Source: a virus
Virus record (IMG/VR): IMGVR_UViG_3300047666_000603
Location: 1 to 64,000 of that record
Length of the DNA stretch: 64,000 bases
Reading direction: 5' to 3' (one strand)
Under the pieces are notes generated by a model. It was not told the DNA's origin. It saw only the letters and a list, made by a program, of their open reading frames with translations, and ran no database searches. Of the stretch, positions 3,982-35,741 are shown piece after piece; the first letter of the stretch is position 1, and each line of letters opens with the position of its first letter. The position numbers and the translations under genes are program-made.

Positions 3982-5457
3982 TTATTGTTTGTTTAATGTT
4001 TCTCTAATTTCCGTTAATGTTATTTGGTTTTTAAACTCACCATTAACGTATATTGTCTTTAATTCCCCGCCCTCATCTTCACGAGAAACAGATTGTATTA
4101 AAAAATAATCTTCACCATCTTTTTCGACTCTAAGGAGTCCTTTAGCTGATTTTTTGTCACCACTATCTGTTATTGGGTCTTTAAAAATTTCTCTTCCCTC
4201 TCCGCTCACCTCTATATAAGTGGCCTTCATAGCAAACCCATAAGTGTCTCTTGTGTTAAATTGGTAGGTGAATGAGCCGATACCTAATATAATATTGGTG
4301 CTTGCAAACCCCTTTTCAGCCAATCTAAGGCATATTTGTTGCGCTCTATCCACTGTTATACTATCCCCATATATAGCTCCTATATGAGGGTCTAACACCT
4401 TAAATCCCTGCTCATTAATAGTACCACCAAAGATGTCCCAAAGTAATTCTATTACTCCTTTATGTTCTGGTTTTAAACCATTACCTCCGTATGATTCTCT
4501 TTCCTGTTTACTTGAACCTCTACCACAAATAATATCAACAGGATCACCACTATCAGGACGGATAACCACTTTCCCATCACGGGAAAGAATTTCATCTTTA
4601 AGAACGGGTAAATACTCTGTAAGTACTTTCCATAAGTTCCAAGTGTCGCTTACAACAGAAAGAATGCCTACAGGAAATTGATTAAGCAAATACCTAAAAG
4701 TTCCTATCTCATCATCTTTCGTTCCTGCGCTCATAACGCTATGCTCTGTTGCGTTAACTGAATGAACAACATCACCCACCTCGTCGTAGTATTTTCGCGC
4801 CCCATGAATAGTGGGCAACCCGTCAGACCCTTTAAATGATGTAGCGTGGCCTAATCCACTAGAAATTGAAGCGTCAATAGAGTCCATCCCACGCATTGAG
4901 AAATCATGCCCCTGAAAATCCACAAACCCTAAATTGCCTGAGTCTGTTGTTTCGGCCCAAAATAAAAGCGTACCCTTATATATATTCGCAATAGTAGCGG
5001 AGGTTATGGGCTTCCATAAGAGGTTGCTAATTAGCGTCTCAAGATAATTTGTAATCCAATAAAAATCAGGGTGCGTATTTACAACCGTAAGAACAGGGAT
5101 GCCAATAGGCACAATCTCACCCTCTTTTATCCCCTTCACTTCAATGGGTAAATAGCCTAAATCATGCAGGCTCTCGAAGTGAGAAACGTCATAATTAGTA
5201 AATAGGTGCGCGGAAAACTCTCGCTTCAACTCCCCACAAACCTCTTCTTTTGGTTTTGAAAAGAATCCTTCGTTAAACATCTCATTAATCTTCCTTACAA
5301 CCATTTGTTGACCAAAGCTCACCACTCCGCTCAATCCTGCTTTTAAAGCGTGTCTATTACTTCTAGGTGTAAAATTGCTATACACTAATGTTGTTCCTTT
5401 CGGGTACATTAAGTGATGTCCTAATTTGTACGAGTCTGTTGCTAGTAATGGATTCAT
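3982..5457 (-). CDS. nicotinamide phosphoribosyltransferase family (Nampt/Namat-like)
   Basis: TDSYKLGH, HDFSMRG, ATEHSVM, SVVSDTWN, VIRPDSGDP, IYGDSIT, FAMKAT, KDPITDSGDKKSAKG. Confidence 0.93.
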   Translation of the reverse strand: MNPLLATDSYKLGHHLMYPKGTTLVYSNFTPRSNRHALKAGLSGVVSFGQQMVVRKINEMFNEGFFSKPKEEVCGELKREFSAHLFTNYDVSHFESLHDLGYLPIEVKGIKEGEIVPIGIPVLTVVNTHPDFYWITNYLETLISNLLWKPITSATIANIYKGTLLFWAETTDSGNLGFVDFQGHDFSMRGMDSIDASISSGLGHATSFKGSDGLPTIHGARKYYDEVGDVVHSVNATEHSVMSAGTKDDEIGTFRYLLNQFPVGILSVVSDTWNLWKVLTEYLPVLKDEILSRDGKVVIRPDSGDPVDIICGRGSSKQERESYGGNGLKPEHKGVIELLWDIFGGTINEQGFKVLDPHIGAIYGDSITVDRAQQICLRLAEKGFASTNIILGIGSFTYQFNTRDTYGFAMKATYIEVSGEGREIFKDPITDSGDKKSAKGLLRVEKDGEDYFLIQSVSREDEGGELKTIYVNGEFKNQITLTEIRETLNKQ

Positions 5458-5837
5458 TTGTATATTTCTTTTTTAAATTCTGTTAGTATTTCAATAGACT
5501 CATTTAACCCCGCCTTATCATCAAGAAGAATATTAAAGAATGGTTTATCTCCGTTACCGATTATTACAGGCGACCTATTTACGTAGTCAAAATTTATATC
5601 TAACGAATGTAGTATAAATTCCTTGTATTTCAAAGAAGAATTGTCAGAAACAGTGTAAATACAAAGAACAATGTCTTCTTTTTTAAACGATTTTATAAGG
5701 CTTTGAACCCTCGCGCACCTTTCCTCTATGTATTCTGATATTGTTAATGGGAAAATAGTGTCATCAAAATCAAGACCTATAATTATTTTACGGTGTTCAG
5801 AGAACGTTCTAATCAATTTTTCTGTCTCGTACCTCAT
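5454..5837 (-). CDS. HAD-superfamily phosphatase-like protein
   Basis: IGLDFDDTI (DxDxT motif I), KPFFNILLDDKAG. Confidence 0.7.
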   Translation of the reverse strand: MRYETEKLIRTFSEHRKIIIGLDFDDTIFPLTISEYIEERCARVQSLIKSFKKEDIVLCIYTVSDNSSLKYKEFILHSLDINFDYVNRSPVIIGNGDKPFFNILLDDKAGLNESIEILTEFKKEIYK

Positions 5838-10912: not shown

Positions 10913-11426
10913 TACTTATTGTTTTCAGCAAATTTAAGGGATTAGATTCATTCTTGCAAGAGAAAACAGAGAATTAATTCCTTATTCTTATTTAGACTAA
11001 ATAAAAATAGCCCCATAATTGAACTTTAATTTTCCCATAAACTTAGATGTGGCGGCGGAGGCGATAGCCGACGGTGGCGCAGAGAAGTTTATTATTACGT
11101 AGCTTGTAACACTTGCTATTCCCGCACTGTGTATAACAAGCACTAATTATGTTAAAAAGTTTTTGTATATTTAACATACTATGTCAGGAATGTTGGCTAA
11201 CTTTGCAGAGTGTATCTTTTCTACCGCTAAACCCAACGTTAATTAGTGTGTATTTCTAACGCAAATCCACTAACGTTTTTTTTGTTGTGTTGGGTGTTAC
11301 CCAGTGTGTGAGAATAAGTTGGCAATACAGGATGCTTGCGCCCCACCCCCTCGTTTATTTATTTTCAATGTAGTGTTGGTTCTTCCAAATATATTTACGT
11401 ATATTTACGGAAACAAAACAGTAGCA

Positions 11427-12038
11427 ATGAAAAAAGTAACAAAGAAATTACAGCAGTTTATTGATTCAATTTCAACCATTGGAGACAGTACTATACCTGA
11501 TGATGATGGTAAGATTTACTATTCTAAAGTGGACGGCTCCTATTTAACAAGAGTTGGTATGGAAAACGATTTAAACTACCTATTGAAATTAGGAGTAAGT
11601 GAGCAAATACAGAGCGGGTATGGGGAGCCATCCACCGCTTGTATTGGATTTAACCCAACAGAGCAAAAATGGTACGGGTGGAGTCATAGAGCAATATATG
11701 GGTTTGGCGTTGGTAGTGAATGTAAAAAAGGATCGTGCGGATATTCCGCAAGCAATAAAAAAGATTTTGCAGAAGAAAATTTAAGGTGGTATTGCGACAC
11801 AGACATGGATGAAACGTATAAAGTAGACATTTCTGCAAAAGAGGCAATACAAGAAGGTAAGTTAGGTGTTAAAGTTGAATATACATATAACAATAAAGTG
11901 CCAAACGAATCTATGAGAAGCACCACTCATTTTGTTTTTGAGCCGTATCCAAAGAAATGGGGGAAAGGAGAATGGACTGCAAACTCACTTAATGAAGCAA
12001 GAGAAATGGCTGTAGATTTCGCTAAAGGAGTTTCCTAA
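11427..12038 (+). CDS. hypothetical phage protein
   Basis: ATG at 11427 after tandem TATATTTACG; IGFNPTEQKWYGWSHRA. Confidence 0.65.
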   Translation: MKKVTKKLQQFIDSISTIGDSTIPDDDGKIYYSKVDGSYLTRVGMENDLNYLLKLGVSEQIQSGYGEPSTACIGFNPTEQKWYGWSHRAIYGFGVGSECKKGSCGYSASNKKDFAEENLRWYCDTDMDETYKVDISAKEAIQEGKLGVKVEYTYNNKVPNESMRSTTHFVFEPYPKKWGKGEWTANSLNEAREMAVDFAKGVS

Positions 12039-13432: not shown

Positions 13433-13440
13433 TGCACCAT

Positions 13441-13485
13441 AACACCAAGAGAAGTGCCGTTACTTAATGGCATTTCTCGGCTGTT
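13441..13485 (+). repeat. conserved short anchor hairpin (array A end)
   Basis: AACACCAA-GAGAAGTGCCGTTA-ct-TAATGGCATTTCTC-GGCTGTT; near-identical to 35679-35724. Confidence 0.85.
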
Positions 13486-13533
13486 GGGCCGAGTTTTAAT
13501 TCGGAATTTCTTTTATTTTCCATTTCCTCTACG

Positions 13534-13541
13534 TATATTTG
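13534..13541 (+). promoter_or_regulatory. Bacteroidota-type -7 promoter element
   Basis: TATATTTG 17 bp before RNA ligase ATG; also at 25202, 34536 (+) and 22850, 56425, 59315 (-). Confidence 0.6.
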
Positions 13542-13558
13542 GCAAAAATCTAAAACTT

Positions 13559-14452
13559 ATGGAGTTCAAAAAGTATATGCATCTTGAGCGTTTTGACGCA
13601 ACAGAGGTGGAAAACATTGAAATAGGAACGTGCTATGTGTTCCCTAAAATAGACGGCACAAACGCTTCTGTTTGGCTTAATGACGCTGCTATTATCGCGG
13701 CGGGAAGTAGAACAAGAACACTTTCATTAGAAAAAGACAATGCGGGGTTTTATGAGTTTGCTAGTCAATGTTCTGAGATAGCTGATTTTTTAGACTCCCA
13801 CCCAACGCTTAGGCTTTACGGTGAATGGCTAGTTCCGCACAGCCTCAAAACATACAGAGAAAACGCTTGGAGAGATTTCTACGTATTTGATGTAATGGAT
13901 GATAGCGGAAGGTATTTACCTTATAATGAATACAAGTTGCTGTTAGATGAGTTTGATTTAAACTACATCCCGCCAATTAAAATCATCAAAAACGGAACAT
14001 ACGATGATTTTGTATTTCAAATGAACAGCAACAATAACTACCTTATTGAAGACGGCAAGGGAATGGGAGAAGGTGTTGTGCTAAAGAACTACTCATTTGT
14101 AAATAAGTACGGAAGAACGACGTGGGCTAAAATAGTAAGTTCTGAATTTAAAGCAAAGCATCACAAAGAAATGGGTGCGCCCGAAGTGGAATATAAGATG
14201 GTGGAGAGTGATATTGTAGATAAATTCGTCACTCAAGCATTATGCGAAAAAGTAAAGGCTAAAATAGAAATGGAGACAGGTGATTGGAAGTCGCAATACA
14301 TCCCCCGACTATTAAACACTGTTTACTACGATTTAGTTAGGGAGGAAATGTGGGAGATAGTAAAGGAATTCAAGAAGCCTAAGATTGATTTTAAAACCCT
14401 TCAACACTTTACAAATAACAAGACAAAAGAACACTTACCTAAAGTATTTTAA
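13559..14452 (+). CDS. RNA ligase (Rnl2-like nucleotidyltransferase)
   Basis: motif I PKIDGTN, LYGEW, FYVFDV, EGVVLK, WAKIV; adjacent to PNKP. Confidence 0.85.
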   Translation: MEFKKYMHLERFDATEVENIEIGTCYVFPKIDGTNASVWLNDAAIIAAGSRTRTLSLEKDNAGFYEFASQCSEIADFLDSHPTLRLYGEWLVPHSLKTYRENAWRDFYVFDVMDDSGRYLPYNEYKLLLDEFDLNYIPPIKIIKNGTYDDFVFQMNSNNNYLIEDGKGMGEGVVLKNYSFVNKYGRTTWAKIVSSEFKAKHHKEMGAPEVEYKMVESDIVDKFVTQALCEKVKAKIEMETGDWKSQYIPRLLNTVYYDLVREEMWEIVKEFKKPKIDFKTLQHFTNNKTKEHLPKVF

Positions 14453-14454
14453 AA

Positions 14455-15348
14455 ATGATAAGAGCATACATAGGAATTTCAGCGAGTGGGAAAACAACCC
14501 TTTGCAAGGGCGATATGAAATTAAATACTAATTCTGTTAGAGTTAATAGAGATGATTTACGTTTTGCTGTTTACGGTCTTGATTACGATTCTTACGGTGA
14601 TTATTTTAAGCGTGATGATTTTTACAGGTGTGAGCAGTTTATATCTGATTTAGCGGATAGAATTGTTTCTCGCGCCATATCTAAGGGAAAAGATGTTTAC
14701 ATAGACAACACTCATCTAAAGCAAAAATATCTAAAGAAATATTACACTTACGGAGTGGATGTTGAGCTTGTTTGGTGTGATGTAGATATTGATCTTGCGC
14801 TTCATAGAAACGTAAATAGAAAAGACCATTTTGTTGACTCTGAAATAATCAAAAAGCAAAATGACTCTTATGAAATTATAAAGAAGAATTGGAAATCACC
14901 CGATGAAGTTGCGGAAAGAAAGATACATAATAACTCATTAAAAAAGAAGTGTTACGTATTTGACATTGATGGAACGCTTGCAGATAAAGGAGATAGAAAC
15001 CCCTATGATTATTCGCGTGTTTCAGAAGATGGTCTTAGAAATTCAGTTCTTGACGCTTATTTAGCCCATTCTTTTGACGGAAAAGAGATGATTATTTGTA
15101 GCGGAAGAGATAGTTCATGCAGAACAGAAACAGAGGATTGGTTAACGAAGAACCAAGTTTATTACACCACTCTTTACATGAGGCAAGAGGGAGACTCAAG
15201 GGCTGATTGGAAAGTGAAAGAGGAGATGTGGGATGAGATATGTAAAGATTATTATATAGTGGCTATGTATGATGATAGAAATCAAGTTGTAGACCACGCT
15301 AGGAGTCTTGGTTTTGATGTATTTCAAGTACAGGAGGGAAACTTTTAA
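14455..15348 (+). CDS. pseT: polynucleotide 5'-kinase/3'-phosphatase
   Basis: P-loop GISASGKTT, RDDLR, IDNTHL; HAD domain FDIDGTLA, SGR, DDRNQVV. Confidence 0.9.
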   Translation: MIRAYIGISASGKTTLCKGDMKLNTNSVRVNRDDLRFAVYGLDYDSYGDYFKRDDFYRCEQFISDLADRIVSRAISKGKDVYIDNTHLKQKYLKKYYTYGVDVELVWCDVDIDLALHRNVNRKDHFVDSEIIKKQNDSYEIIKKNWKSPDEVAERKIHNNSLKKKCYVFDIDGTLADKGDRNPYDYSRVSEDGLRNSVLDAYLAHSFDGKEMIICSGRDSSCRTETEDWLTKNQVYYTTLYMRQEGDSRADWKVKEEMWDEICKDYYIVAMYDDRNQVVDHARSLGFDVFQVQEGNF

Positions 15349-17111: not shown

Positions 17112-17397
17112 ATGTTATATTGGCATATGGAAAACAAAGAAATTTCGGTTCTTTTGAAAGAAAGACTACAAGACATTGAAAAAAAATTAAAAGGTAGAGA
17201 TTTTTATTTAATTAAATATGTAAAAGAAGAGGTTATGATGTCCTATTCTGATGGATATAAAGACGCTTCTGATGTTGCTAGAAAGATTTTTTACAAATGA
17301 AAGAATTATTATCAATAGTTATTCCAATATTGCTTGCTGTTTTGTTATTTTGGTTTTGTTTTATTAGAACCCAAGATTGGGACGGGGGAGATGTATT

Positions 17398-18270
17398 ATG
17401 AAAGAAAAATTACTTGTAAGTTTCAGCGGCGGCGAAACATCTGCGTATATGGTGTGGTGGGTAAAGAAACACTGGGCTAATAAATACGATATAAAGTTTG
17501 TATTCGCCAACACTGGTGAGGAAAACGAAGAAACACTTTTGTTTACTAAAAAGTGCCAAGAATATTTTAATATTGATTTAGTTTGGGTGGAGGCTGTATT
17601 TCATAAAGAAAAAGGAAAAGGAACTACTCATAAGGTGGTTCCTTTTGAAGCGGCGGAAAGAAGTAATAAACTATTTATGGATATGGCTGCGGTATATGGG
17701 ATACCAAACCAAATGTTTCCCCACTGCAACAGGGAGCTAAAACTAGCCCCAATTAAGTCTTACTTGAGAAGTGTTGGGTGGAAAAAATATCAAACAGCTA
17801 TAGGGATAAGAAATGATGAAATAGATAGGGTTAACGTAAATAGAGAAAAATATAGGCTTTTATATCCGTTAGTTACAGATCAACCAATGACAAAGCCTAA
17901 AATAAACTTTTGGTGGTCACAACAACCATTCAGGTTAAATTTAAAGGGTTATCAAGGAAACTGCAAAACGTGTTGGAAAAAGGGTGATAATAAATTGTAT
18001 CAAATAGCAAAAGAAAATAGACGGTTTTTTGACTCATTTAAAGAAGTTGAAAAAACTTACACTAATTTTGTTCCAGAAGGAAGAAGTGCTACGGATGAAA
18101 AGATTACATTTTTTAGAAGGGGGAGGTCTACGGAGCAGATATTAAAAGAAGCGGAAAATTTTAACGGTGTAGTAAGAGATGATTCCGCCGAAATAAATTA
18201 TCAAACATCAATACTAGATTACGATGAAAGTGAAAGTTGTGATATTTATGCAATGTGTGGGGATAATTAA
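17398..18270 (+). CDS. PAPS-reductase-like (adenine nucleotide alpha-hydrolase) protein
   Basis: VSFSGGETS, FANTGEE, CNRELK, GIRNDE, GNCKTCWKK. Confidence 0.75.
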   Translation: MKEKLLVSFSGGETSAYMVWWVKKHWANKYDIKFVFANTGEENEETLLFTKKCQEYFNIDLVWVEAVFHKEKGKGTTHKVVPFEAAERSNKLFMDMAAVYGIPNQMFPHCNRELKLAPIKSYLRSVGWKKYQTAIGIRNDEIDRVNVNREKYRLLYPLVTDQPMTKPKINFWWSQQPFRLNLKGYQGNCKTCWKKGDNKLYQIAKENRRFFDSFKEVEKTYTNFVPEGRSATDEKITFFRRGRSTEQILKEAENFNGVVRDDSAEINYQTSILDYDESESCDIYAMCGDN

Positions 18271-18387: not shown

Positions 18388-18455
18388 AAATGATTTTTAA
18401 CACTAAGCTAAGTTCCGTTATTTCAATGGAATTTAGCGGCTGTTAGAAGTTGTTT
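18388..18455 (+). repeat. solo (empty) anchor site of the cassette system
   Basis: AACACTAA-GCTAAGTTCCGTT...AATGGAATTTAGC-GGCTGTT; outer flanks AAATGATTTTTAAC/GTTAGAAGTTGTTT pair with each other (WC or G-T at all 14 positions). Confidence 0.8.
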
Positions 18456-33414: not shown

Positions 33415-34473
33415 ATGGCAAACTTAGTCTATAGATTAGGACAATCAGGCAGACAGAAGAGAAGCAACCCATCAGATTTAGGTTATTACGCAACAGGTTC
33501 AAGAGACGGAGGAAATCAAGACCTCGCACCACCTATGCCCTATTCGAGAAGGTTTAAAGCAATTCACACTGTAAGAGTAGAGAAAGACGGGAAAATAATT
33601 CCCCGCAAAGTGGCCTACAGCCCCGACGAAGAAAGTATTTTTATGGATGATTGGGTGGATAAAAACTCAAAAGTTGTAAAGATTAAGTTCAAGAAGGGGA
33701 TGCTCATGGTGGATGAGGATAATGAACCACAACTTATTGAACTGTTAAGTTTATTGGACGGGAATGAATCAAAACCAAATAGGGACACTAAAACCCCTGT
33801 TTTATTCCATCAGATTAACAAATCAAAGAAAGCAGAGGAAGTTTTGTTAAACGAAGAGCGTGTAGCAAAAGAACTAGCCGTATATTGGGACTTACCATAC
33901 ACAAGAAAGCAAGCAATTGCAAATTGGGTGGGGATAAGAACAGCAAACCAAGACCCGAATATGTGGCAGCACAGCCTATTCCTATGGGCGAAACACAACG
34001 TCAAGAAGTTTAAAGAAGTTTATCACAACCCCGACCTAGAGTACATGGATTTCATTTCACGAGCAGAGAACATCGGCTTATTGAAGTTTAACACAAATAC
34101 ATGGAAATACGGAGAAGTGAAGATGCTAGTAGTGAGTAGGAATGATATGCGCTACGAGAAGCTAGTGGAAAGGCTCTTAAACGAACCCTCGCTGTACAAG
34201 TCTATTGCTGACGACGTACTTCGGGCAGAAGGTAAAAGCAACCTCATAGTAGCAGGGAAGGAGAAATTTGACTTTGATGCAATGACAGCCGAAGACCTTT
34301 TGGACAAAGCTAAGAAGCATGACTTAGTGAAATACAAAGGAGGAACAGGATTCTACATTGTGGACACAGGTAAAGCTGTGGGTAAATCAACCAAGGAGGA
34401 CGCTATTAAGTCAATAGAGACAGACCCTTATTTGAGACAACAAATAGAGGAACAGTTCAAAAAGCTCATCTAA
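33415..34473 (+). CDS. conserved-type phage protein following MCP
   Basis: 352-aa ORF; SIFMDDW..IKFKKGMLMV. Confidence 0.55.
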   Translation: MANLVYRLGQSGRQKRSNPSDLGYYATGSRDGGNQDLAPPMPYSRRFKAIHTVRVEKDGKIIPRKVAYSPDEESIFMDDWVDKNSKVVKIKFKKGMLMVDEDNEPQLIELLSLLDGNESKPNRDTKTPVLFHQINKSKKAEEVLLNEERVAKELAVYWDLPYTRKQAIANWVGIRTANQDPNMWQHSLFLWAKHNVKKFKEVYHNPDLEYMDFISRAENIGLLKFNTNTWKYGEVKMLVVSRNDMRYEKLVERLLNEPSLYKSIADDVLRAEGKSNLIVAGKEKFDFDAMTAEDLLDKAKKHDLVKYKGGTGFYIVDTGKAVGKSTKEDAIKSIETDPYLRQQIEEQFKKLI

Positions 34474-34500
34474 TAAAAAGGAGGTGATGTTCTAAAATAA

Positions 34501-34532
34501 AAAGCCCTGCATTTGTTTGCGGGGCTTTTTTT
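34501..34532 (+). terminator. intrinsic terminator (possibly bidirectional)
   Basis: AAAGCCCTGC-atttgttt-GCGGGGCTTT + T run. Confidence 0.8.
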
Positions 34533-34602
34533 GTTTATATTTGCTCATAACGTTAAATGTAAAAAGCATTTTAATGATTTTTAAATAATGTTGTAAGTAG
34601 TT

Positions 34603-34714
34603 GCTGCGGTATGCAAGAGTAAATGACTTCTAATTGTCGCCCTGCAAAGGTTGGTCAAAGCAGCGTCCGCAAAACGTGCCGCAAGGTTCGAGGGTTCGAA
34701 TCCCTCTCGTAGCA
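34603..34714 (+). ncRNA. atypical tRNA-like RNA (GCA loop, 34-nt D-loop insert), cassette C1 cargo
   Basis: acceptor GCTGCGG/TCGTAGC, T-arm GAGGG-TTCGAAT-CCCTC, D-arm TGCAAG..TGGTCAAAGCA, arm GCGT-CCGCAAA-ACGT, variable arm GCC-GCAA-GGT. Confidence 0.7.
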
Positions 34715-34973
34715 GCTATTACTTACAACGTTTAGTATAAAAATAGTAAGGGGTGGAGGTTGAAATCTCCCGACTCATAGGTAGCTATAATCTTGTCCAT
34801 ATCCTATGCCAAGCCCGTAGGTTATAGACCCCTTATTTTATTTACACATTGTTGTATGTCTTTTTTAATTGCATACAACTACAAAGCTATGTGGCGTGGC
34901 TACAACAACGCTGAAATAAACAAACAAGTCGCCCAGCCATGCCATATAGGTAATGTTGTGGTGCGTTTTTATT

Positions 34974-35195
34974 ATGAACTTGAAATATGCAATACAAGTA
35001 AAAAAAACAGGGAAGTGGTTAAACTTAGATTTTCATGACGGGTCTGAAATAATAACTGTAAATGACTTTACGAAGGCTTATCATTTCGATGACTCAGAAG
35101 CGGCTGAAAAATTCCTTTCTTATCATAGGCTTGATAAAGGGAATCACGAGATGTTTAAGCTCGAAGTATTTGCTAGGCCGATTGAATGGTCTTAA
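34974..35195 (+). CDS. cassette C3 ORF
   Basis: 73-aa ORF between GTT 34955 and mutated core TAC 35201. Confidence 0.6.
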   Translation: MNLKYAIQVKKTGKWLNLDFHDGSEIITVNDFTKAYHFDDSEAAEKFLSYHRLDKGNHEMFKLEVFARPIEWS

Positions 35196-35669: not shown

Positions 35670-35741
35670 TTGCATCCCAACACCAAGAGAAGTGCCGTTT
35701 TTTCAATGGCATTTCTCGACTGTTGTGAGCATATTCTTTAC

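Follow-up and report, generated by a model that had tools for sequence, protein, structure and literature searches.

What kind of gene is the small tRNA-shaped element that lies between two protein genes of the virus record IMGVR_UViG_3300047666_000603: a transfer RNA (tRNA) gene that still decodes, a broken one, or an RNA kept for another use? The stretch of DNA analysed here (the window) comprises the first 64,000 nucleotides (nt), i.e., the first 64 kb, of this 73,238-nt IMG/VR record, which at its full length has direct terminal repeats; all positions are window coordinates. The element is seated in a 480-nt gap devoid of genes, between a head-module gene for a protein of 352 amino acids (aa), which ends at 34473, and the next open reading frame (ORF), which starts at 34953. 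Very probably, it descends from a type-II leucine tRNA (tRNA-Leu) gene and is no longer able to decode.

Architecture and descent of the element

A preliminary description of the sequence had presented the element as a non-canonical, tRNA-like RNA, and a non-canonical RNA gene of tRNA origin is indeed supported: direct reading locates all the listed features within 34590-34729. The sequence bears out (i) a 7-bp acceptor stem, a perfect T-arm, the D-arm halves TGCAAG/TTGGTCAAAGCA and the two hairpins of an insert; and (ii) the variable arm, the discriminator A and the lack of an encoded CCA. Furthermore, the fold of the 140 nt agrees that the complementary ends of the cassette extend the acceptor stem. 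The following parts can be distinguished:

34590-34729 (+): element including its flanking arms, 140 nt
34590-34599 (+): left arm GTTGTAAGTA, perfect complement of 34720-34729; the acceptor helix continues through it in the fold
34603-34609 (+): acceptor 5' strand GCTGCGG, 7/7 pairs with 34707-34713; placed by the Rfam tRNA alignment; pair probabilities 0.46-0.86
34612-34617 (+): TGCAAG, i.e., D-stem 5' strand TGC followed by A13, A14 and G15; placed by sequence reading and tRNA-Leu alignment, with low thermodynamic support
34618-34650 (+): D-loop insert, a gap against tRNA-Leu in the alignment
34624-34639 (+): insert hairpin 1, TGAC/GTCG; probability 0.81
34641-34650 (+): insert hairpin 2, CCT-GCAA-AGG; probability 0.14
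34651-34662 (+): 3' part of the D loop with G18 and G19, and D-stem 3' strand GCA (TTGGTCAAAGCA); aligns to TTGG...ACGC of tRNA-Leu D arms
34663-34677 (+): anticodon-like arm with two registers, 3 nt shorter than its tRNA-Leu counterpart
34678-34687 (+): variable arm GCC-GCAA-GGT, a tRNA-Leu signature; probability about 0.7
34690-34706 (+): T-arm GAGGG-TTCGAAT-CCCTC, consensus T loop, 5/5 stem pairs
34707-34713 and 34714 (+): acceptor 3' strand TCGTAGC and discriminator A; GCT follows the A, so CCA is not encoded
34720-34729 (+): right arm TACTTACAAC, complement of the left arm

Two of the seven acceptor pairs are G-U. The 10-nt arms are the sole exact copies of that word in the window; they lengthen the acceptor helix, and the first 20 bases of the folded 140 nt are all paired.

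The described features of 34590-34729 exceed chance. The 140 nt fold with -47.0 kcal/mol, as against -34.4 +/- 3.6 kcal/mol for shuffled sequences (z = -3.54; 0/200 shuffles equal). The Rfam tRNA model (RF00005) matches 34603-34714 with 22.6 bits (E = 0.033 for 601 nt and 9.5e-4 for the whole genome), leaving 31 nt as an unaligned insertion; the D loop measures some 45 nt between TGC and GCA, compared with about 7-11 nt in a canonical tRNA. The Infernal check proposed in the preliminary description thus returns a tRNA match, but one under the cut-off of 29 bits, i.e., below the threshold for canonical tRNAs. A tRNA-Leu model built in this analysis from 35 aligned tRNA-Leu genes (R1) scores the element at 34.6 bits (E = 3.7e-7), its sole match both in the window and in the whole 73,238-nt record. 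The placement of the 5' acceptor strand by R1 itself at 34644-34650 (5/7 pairs) was dropped for 34603-34609 (7/7). ARAGORN calls no tRNA gene in the window or in the whole genome, at either default or lowered thresholds, and neither the Rfam tRNA model nor R1 finds a second tRNA-like match in the whole record. Ensemble pair probabilities reach about 0.8 for the acceptor and 0.88 for the T-arm, next to the values listed for insert hairpin 1 and the variable arm.

YrlA-type Y RNAs carry a tRNA-like domain on a long stem made from both RNA ends, which replaces the anticodon arm. The element is alike in that its 5' and 3' ends build a terminal helix of some 20 bp, which bears a tRNA-like domain, and it could accordingly be taken for a YrlA-type or transfer-messenger RNA (tmRNA)-like module tethering a protein partner. 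This is extremely improbable: the stem of the element prolongs the acceptor, which is a different topology; the Rfam list (E up to 10) includes no model for YrlA, Y RNA or tmRNA; ARAGORN reports no tmRNA; and no TROVE/Ro60 family is present among the 58 ORFs scanned.

Regarding descent, the T-arm and 3' acceptor strand are identical in 24/24 nt to the tRNA-Leu(TAA) gene of an unrelated viral contig (L004), which is the only match of this 24-mer in the viral_contigs collection. That gene is by far the best match to the element among the 21 tRNAs of its contig, with 62 of 85 positions identical. The exact 24-mer has 0 matches in genome_contigs (one genome each of 185,579 prokaryote species). The signature formed by the variable arm and T-arm was searched as a degenerate pattern in both collections: the 13 viral loci are 12 tRNA-Leu and one tRNA-Ser, and the 80 cellular loci are 77 tRNA-Leu and three uncalled sequences (two of these being cut loci), with no tRNA-Cys in either set. 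The discriminator A is also that of tRNA-Leu. Judged by these matches, the body of the element is a tRNA-Leu by descent, not a tRNA-Cys.

Phage type-II tRNA-Leu genes, such as L004 Leu(TAA) and L025 Leu(CAA), share with the element the acceptor, the T-arm, a GCC-GYAA-GGY variable arm, the GG of the D loop and the discriminator A. In contrast to them, the element has an insert of 31-34 nt in the D loop, lacks one GCC and U33, has T10 and R11-Y24 in the D stem, does not encode CCA, and stays sub-threshold in ARAGORN and Rfam.

Resemblance to a tRNA is greatest in the 3' 45 nt, which could also suggest an attachment site or integration scar, i.e., a duplicated 3' portion of some host tRNA gene that serves site-specific integration. 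Such an origin is very improbable: the 24-mer is missing from the 185,579 prokaryote species mentioned above; the 5' acceptor strand, U8, A14 and the GG motif of the D loop are present, as in a whole tRNA and not a 3' fragment; the 58 ORFs scanned include no integrase family; direct terminal repeats are present in the record; and the site is inside a structural module.

Lesions in the decoding half

Three lesions stand out. First, the D loop holds, behind position 15, an extra segment of some 31-34 nt, bordered by the direct repeat TGCAAG (34612)/TGCAAAG (34643-34649); no second copy of the insert occurs in the genome or in the fetched loci. Second, tRNA-Leu genes have GCC-GCC at the junction of anticodon stem and variable arm, of which the element keeps a single GCC. 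With one GCC missing, the anticodon stem and the variable arm compete for the same bases and both cannot close. Two registers can be distinguished: (i) a loop CGCAAAA with anticodon CAA, on a stem of 4 pairs plus a C-C mismatch, which destroys the variable stem; and (ii) an anticodon stem shifted by one base, of 4 bp, with loop CCGCAAA. The latter loop, given in the preliminary description, does exist in the sequence, but it is just one of the two possibilities. Third, U33 is missing: the base at position 33 is G or C according to the register, versus T33 in 35/35 aligned tRNA-Leu. Consequently, what is found in either register is an arm of 4 pairs devoid of U33 instead of the canonical 5-bp stem and 7-nt loop with U33, and the Leu anticodon CAA is obtained solely at the cost of the variable stem. 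The cloverleaf of the preliminary description has an energy of -27.7 kcal/mol and the Leu register one of -21.2 kcal/mol, with an unconstrained optimum of -31.7 kcal/mol. An alternative hairpin with loop GTCAAAG (thus with U33 and CAA), preferred by RNAfold and used by ARAGORN in one deletion test, was rejected as anticodon arm because it is made from the D-arm homologue and the same pairing is possible in the canonical tRNA-Leu of L004. As for the D stem, it consists of T10-A25, G11-C24 and C12-G23, while tRNA-Leu have G10 and G12.

Identity as a tRNA-Cys requires U73. The preliminary description had read GCA as a Cys anticodon, a reading that is not supported, because GCA appears in one loop register only and does not match the body of the molecule: the signature loci are Leu (12/13 viral and 77/80 cellular), the long variable arm is of the Leu kind, the discriminator is A, and ARAGORN reads Leu(CAA) in both of the following deletions. 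When 34618-34651 are removed in silico, as had been proposed, ARAGORN does call a tRNA-Leu(CAA), but at lowered threshold only, and it makes no call on the undeleted sequence. Removal of 34612-34642 yields Leu(CAA) at default settings, by way of an odd 97-nt parse with a poor acceptor. Freed of its insert, the element is still a poor tRNA, and it reads Leu, never Cys.

These calls bear on the proposal that the element is a working tRNA, either as it stands, namely as a nuclease-resistant Leu(CAA) or Cys(GCA), or after removal of the insert by a cut-and-ligate route with the RNA repair enzymes of the phage. Indeed, the ORF scan confirms that an RNA ligase (13454-14452, +) and PNKP (kinase plus phosphatase; 14455-15348, +) are encoded, as previously noted, and altered anticodon loops are described as a means by which phage tRNAs evade nucleases (PMC10264068). 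Nevertheless, a working tRNA is improbable: one deletion needs the lowered threshold and the other the odd parse; neither register offers more than 4 pairs or a U33; and with the Leu register the variable stem is lost. A73 is, moreover, an argument against Cys. The insert was also suggested to be an intron, which is unlikely: its 31-34 nt are far too short for a self-splicing group I intron (some 200 nt or more), it lies outside the anticodon loop, and the anticodon arm remains defective after its removal. No splicing endonuclease, which an archaeal-type bulge-helix-bulge intron would require, was found among the 58 ORFs, and no intron family in the Rfam list (E up to 10).

The rest of the molecule is intact: acceptor 7/7, T stem 5/5 and variable stem 3/3, with a T loop of consensus sequence TTCGAAT. 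Also retained are U8, A14, G18-G19, an A at the position of A21 and a purine-15/pyrimidine-48 pair. Positions 15 and 48 are A/T in 35/35 tRNA-Leu and G/C in the element, a double change that keeps the tertiary pair possible. All helices outside the anticodon arm are fully paired. The recognisable damage lies entirely within the D-loop and anticodon part. The acceptor/T-arm upper half is the part read by RNase P and the CCA-adding enzyme. Such a pattern of damage fits selection for the upper half, and a recent inactivation as well.

Two possible readings: retained mimic or decaying relic

The reading preferred here, with a rough probability of 0.45, is that selection keeps the element as a tRNA mimic without a decoding role, used either as a decoy or sponge against a host factor that cuts or binds tRNAs, or else as a processing signal. 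According to this proposal, (i) transcription would start at the conserved promoter (34531-34544), and the element would come first in the leader of the structural operon downstream; (ii) with the arms included, the acceptor helix would reach about 20 bp, and a cut in it would free the element; (iii) RNase P and the CCA-adding enzyme, the host readers of the acceptor/T-arm minihelix, could still process it; and (iv) it would then act as a non-decoding mimic of a tRNA, most plausibly by diverting (decoy) or soaking up (sponge) a host protein that cuts or binds tRNAs of type II. Transcription, release from the extended stem, recognition by tRNA-end enzymes and any function are all inferred. The element looks constrained because the helices outside the anticodon arm are fully paired, because of the double change at 15/48, and because its arms are perfectly complementary. 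The promoter shared with L003 and the phage genes for RNA ligase, PNKP, a Tad6-like protein and NAMPT also speak for this reading, as does the tRNA-like family of related phages presented below.

The same lesions may be read in another way, i.e., as those of a former phage tRNA-Leu(CAA) accessory cassette that was inactivated by slippage and is now decaying, co-transcribed in the operon leader without any selected function. This is a serious possibility, only slightly less probable than the mimic. An insert flanked by TGCAAG/TGCAAAG and the loss of one tandem GCC are typical lesions of replication slippage, and U33 has been lost. The former existence of a real tRNA is plausible, since single, functional tRNA genes (Gln, Leu) follow the same promoter modules at comparable places of related contigs. 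Odd, over-long tRNA-like matches are also frequent in related phage records. UUG makes up 13% of the Leu codons (178/1374), so there is no special demand for a Leu(CAA) tRNA; Cys represents 1% of all codons, and codon use gives no argument either way. Against such decay stand the intact acceptor (7/7), T-arm, variable arm and tertiary-pair positions, with the damage confined to the D-loop and anticodon part, and the perfect complementarity of the arms. Besides, dead DNA is usually purged by phage genomes, and a conserved family of non-decoding tRNA-like RNAs is present in related phages.

That family came to light with R1, which was run over 77 loci and 87 related viral records and returned ordinary tRNAs, this second tRNA-like family and other over-long matches; the matches in whole records were not compared one by one with the window element. 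The family is about 101 nt long and has four members (L190:244-344, L191, L192 and L193; also seen at L048:1388-1488 and L093:1542-1642); R1 matched L048 and L093 first, and L190 and L193 were fetched through the shared D arm. Its members have a Leu-type D arm, a 7-bp acceptor, the T loop TTTGATT and an A discriminator. A 6-bp middle hairpin with a loop of 10-13 nt replaces the anticodon arm, so that there is no 7-nt anticodon loop. Acceptor, T stem and middle hairpin covary: the acceptor is 7/7 Watson-Crick in L190 and a quite different, likewise paired stem in the others, and the middle hairpin is also fully exchanged among members. The family receives no ARAGORN call and no Rfam match (E up to 1). 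It is found in regulatory intergenic regions, and three members end right at a ATTACTTATATT box.

Element and family are alike in the Leu-type D arm, the 7-bp acceptor, the A discriminator, the lack of a usable anticodon loop and of an ARAGORN call, and their place in the same kind of regulatory intergenic region; the family scores about 30-35 bits with R1. They differ in that the middle part shows no sequence homology and in that covariation is seen in the family, whereas the element is a singleton. The covarying stems indicate that non-decoding tRNA-shaped RNAs under structural selection do exist in this phage group. This raises the prior for a use of the window element; it is not homology.

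Those records also point to odd tRNA genes being gained and lost at a high rate. Other non-canonical genes of type-II-like tRNAs are located at L223:1501-1624, L198:1501-1598, L196:392-510 (-) and L211:1501-1594. This set includes two related elements (124 and 98 nt) with the same acceptor and T-arm and different long middles, one element with two T-arm-like hairpins, and one with a 6-nt anticodon loop which ARAGORN labels 'tRNA-???'.

Several results weigh against the proposed mimic. Regarding structure, the D stem (T10, R11-Y24) is unlike that of all 35 tRNA-Leu, and the ensemble disfavours the D stem (0.02), both registers of the anticodon stem (<=0.03) and insert hairpin 2 (0.14). Going by their sequence, the insert with its flanking direct repeat and the lost tandem GCC copy look like plain slippage accidents. 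Regarding conservation, no homologue of the element was found in any search, and there is accordingly no covariation to consider; a 22-mer across the junction of insert and D loop has 0 exact matches in viral_contigs and 0 in genome_contigs. A blastn search of 3.2 kb against GenBank phages gave no match. In viral_contigs, the neighbouring 352-aa protein, used singly or as an alignment, has no relative, and the same is true of TerL; protein relatives of the neighbour are known from ice and marine samples at 83% (P0002) and 75% (P0003) identity. A metagenome scan for the neighbouring gene gave two loci, one of which (L002) ends 89 nt past the gene. In the other (L003), the nearest relative, the element is absent from the same site, where the following 150 nt show no relation to the window. 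Contigs of four more metagenome runs from ice or sediment (X3-X6) were also considered, without counting as evidence those parts of the stretch that lack contig cover in X3, X5 and X6. Contigs of X3 and X5 that share the leader upstream of the element continue into other sequence. One 13-kb contig of X4 holds the element, with 0 changes in its 140 nt and 6 in 876 nt overall; it belongs to a near-identical strain in which about one change would be expected in 140 nt, so that the absence of changes lacks statistical power. Finally, we know of no target for the supposed decoy. The singleton state of the element and its absence from L003 and from the leader-sharing X3/X5 contigs also speak for a decaying tRNA gene.

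Comparable tRNA-derived RNAs with roles outside translation have been described. The tRNA cluster of phage T4 includes the stable, tRNA-like RNAs C and D. In Bacillus cereus, tRNA-Other is described as a pseudo-tRNA with a non-translational role (PMC3399842). These genes resemble the element as tRNA-derived, non-decoding genes that are possibly still expressed and processed. The lesions of the element (D-loop insert, competing stems) are its own, and the element is known from its sequence alone.

Exchangeable surroundings and biological meaning

The gap that holds the element contains the following further features:

34499-34530 (+): intrinsic terminator of the upstream 352-aa gene, 13 pairs then a T run; the only terminator-like site in 34300-35100
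34531-34544 (+): promoter-like box TTGTTTATATTTGC, which includes TATATTTG; exact copies only at 34531 (+) and 22849 (-)
34548-34592 (+): shared leader module with loop CATTTTAATG, also in L071 and in contigs of runs X3-X6
34737-34837 (+): structured module 3' of the cassette, 97% identical over 101 nt to L034 1387-1487; fold z = -1.83
34851-34879 (+): 29-nt hairpin module GTTGTATGTC-TTTTTTAAT-TGCATACAAC, with 76 pattern matches in 75 viral loci

The promoter element TATATTTG announced in the preliminary description is present at 34536-34543, and the seat of the element in a swappable unit behind a conserved promoter is likewise supported. Box TTGTTTATATTTGC is kept behind the homologous gene in L003, where the neighbouring protein is 67% identical, and TA..TTTGCTAACG-type boxes resembling it precede hairpins in related viral loci. 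The leader (34549-34592) is 93% identical over 44 nt to L071 and recurs in a number of unrelated X3-X6 contigs, whose sequences part from the window after 34592; two (X3, X5) run on into an ATG-initiated frame instead of the element. Most leader-sharing contigs have G at 34568, which gives the family consensus loop CGTTTTAATG. Many other contigs are common to the window in three short stretches only, i.e., 34548-34592, from 34724 and 34843-34879. Thus, a foreign X4 contig joins the window from 34724 onward, and many contigs of X3-X5 match the 29-nt stretch alone.

The arms of the element can be related to the same modules. ATTACTTACAAC (34718-34729) recurs in L031, L042, L056 and L075, where it makes up the right half of a variant of the 29-nt hairpin module; the left half pairs perfectly with the right arm in the element and imperfectly in those four loci. 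Functional single tRNA genes (Gln, Leu) occupy comparable places in 4/75 loci, without such arms. On the basis of these junctions, the region is a mosaic of exchangeable regulatory modules, with the element as variable cargo between the two arms of one hairpin.

Mobile regulatory cassettes known as PeSL have been described in T4-type phages, where conserved promoter and stem-loop modules flank variable cargo (PMC2839356, PMC4122927). The arrangement found here is of that kind: conserved promoter and hairpin modules, common to otherwise different phage genomes, border a variable cargo. In both cases, the modules are the break points of modular exchange between phages. Compared with the PeSL cassettes as presented in those sources, the module sequences and the phage group are others, the cargo is an RNA gene between the arms of one hairpin, and the evidence here consists of sequence junctions only.

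As to the single modules, 65 of the 76 matches of the 29-nt module are identical to the window copy, and the module usually lies directly behind a ATTACTTATATTTATT box. In its variants, changes of the right half are not matched by changes on the left, so what is conserved may be the sequence (promoter or operator) rather than the hairpin. A blastn search of this region against GenBank phages gave no match, for which the low-complexity filter may be the cause.

The module at 34737-34837 has a closing stem AAGGGGT/ACCCCTT and three hairpins, with a cloverleaf-like outline, and no Rfam match. Its counterpart in L034 follows an unrelated gene, without a tRNA-like element, and precedes the same promoter and 29-mer.

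The leader hairpin belongs to a family with loop CGTTT(T/C)AATG (CGTTTTAATG) and variable, co-varying stems, often located behind a promoter-like box and before GTTGTA. Members occur in the window (34560-34590 and 25844), in the full record (67278/67546/67729) and at many places in L030-L104. Among 89 distinct occurrences of the loop octamer, 26 have at least 7 flanking pairs, compared with 108 of 5000 random positions, and those 26 comprise 25 distinct 5' arms.

Other bracketed or repeated structures were noticed. In L003, the arms GTTGTGTGC (5245-5253) and GCACACAAC (5653-5661) bracket a 400-nt unit with small ORFs, which stands where the window has an empty 29-mer hairpin. Beyond the window, the full record contains at 67031-67263 the perfect, intergenic 10-nt arms GTTGTAGCCA and TGGCTACAAC around a 63-aa minus-strand ORF. 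A long imperfect hairpin (CAACACCAAGAGAAGTGCC ... GGCATTTCTCG.CTGTTG) has three copies at gene borders (13433-13490, 18391-18445 and 35671-35725), one of them just before the RNA ligase gene, and similar hairpins are present in L037 and L062.

Genome-wide, GTTGT...ACAAC pairs number 11 versus 3.6 in shuffles under a strict rule, and 28 versus 16.9 (maximum 29) under a looser one; TANNTTTG is not enriched (82 versus 71 expected). A genome-wide cassette system is not claimed, because the excess is unconvincing and most of the pairs lie in coding DNA.

Regarding the host, promoter, terminator and amidase point to a bacterium. The TerL protein has distant relatives only among phages of Flavobacteriaceae (87 records: 68 of Flavobacterium, 15 of Cellulophaga, two of Tenacibaculum, one of Maribacter and one unnamed). 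Judged by these relatives, the phage probably infects marine or ice Flavobacteria. In addition to RNA ligase and PNKP, the ORFs scanned include the counter-defence or repair genes for NAMPT/NAPRTase (3982-5457, -), a Tad6-like Thoeris inhibitor (11304-12038, +) and a PAPS-reductase-domain protein (17377-18270, +).

What would such an element mean for these phages? Pseudo-tRNAs and tRNA-like RNAs of bacteria and phages are already known; the literature searched contained neither the architecture of this one nor its position between the two arms of a hairpin module widespread in phages. Standard tRNA finders overlook such elements. If it is a dead tRNA gene, it documents the gain, breakage and loss of single tRNA genes in exchangeable regulatory cassettes of marine and ice phages. 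If it is a decoy, the matter concerns defence. Immune nucleases that cleave tRNAs are widespread (PrrC, PARIS, the retron effector PtuAB, Schlafen, OLD and Cas12a3), and the known answers of phages to tRNA cleavage are repair enzymes and resistant tRNAs. For this phage, whose genes also include those for PNKP, RNA ligase, a Tad6-like protein and NAMPT, a decoy would represent a third, inexpensive response.

A broader, rather unlikely reading is put forward only tentatively: phages of Flavobacteriaceae may carry a class of non-decoding, tRNA-shaped RNAs in exchangeable promoter-hairpin regions, to which both the element and L190-L193 would belong. Members of this class would keep the type-II elbow of acceptor, T-arm and D-loop and have the anticodon arm replaced, and they would serve as decoys or inhibitors of tRNA-directed defences, or as charged, non-decoding Leu carriers. 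If this were true, they would be the first RNA-based counter-defence of its kind in phages.

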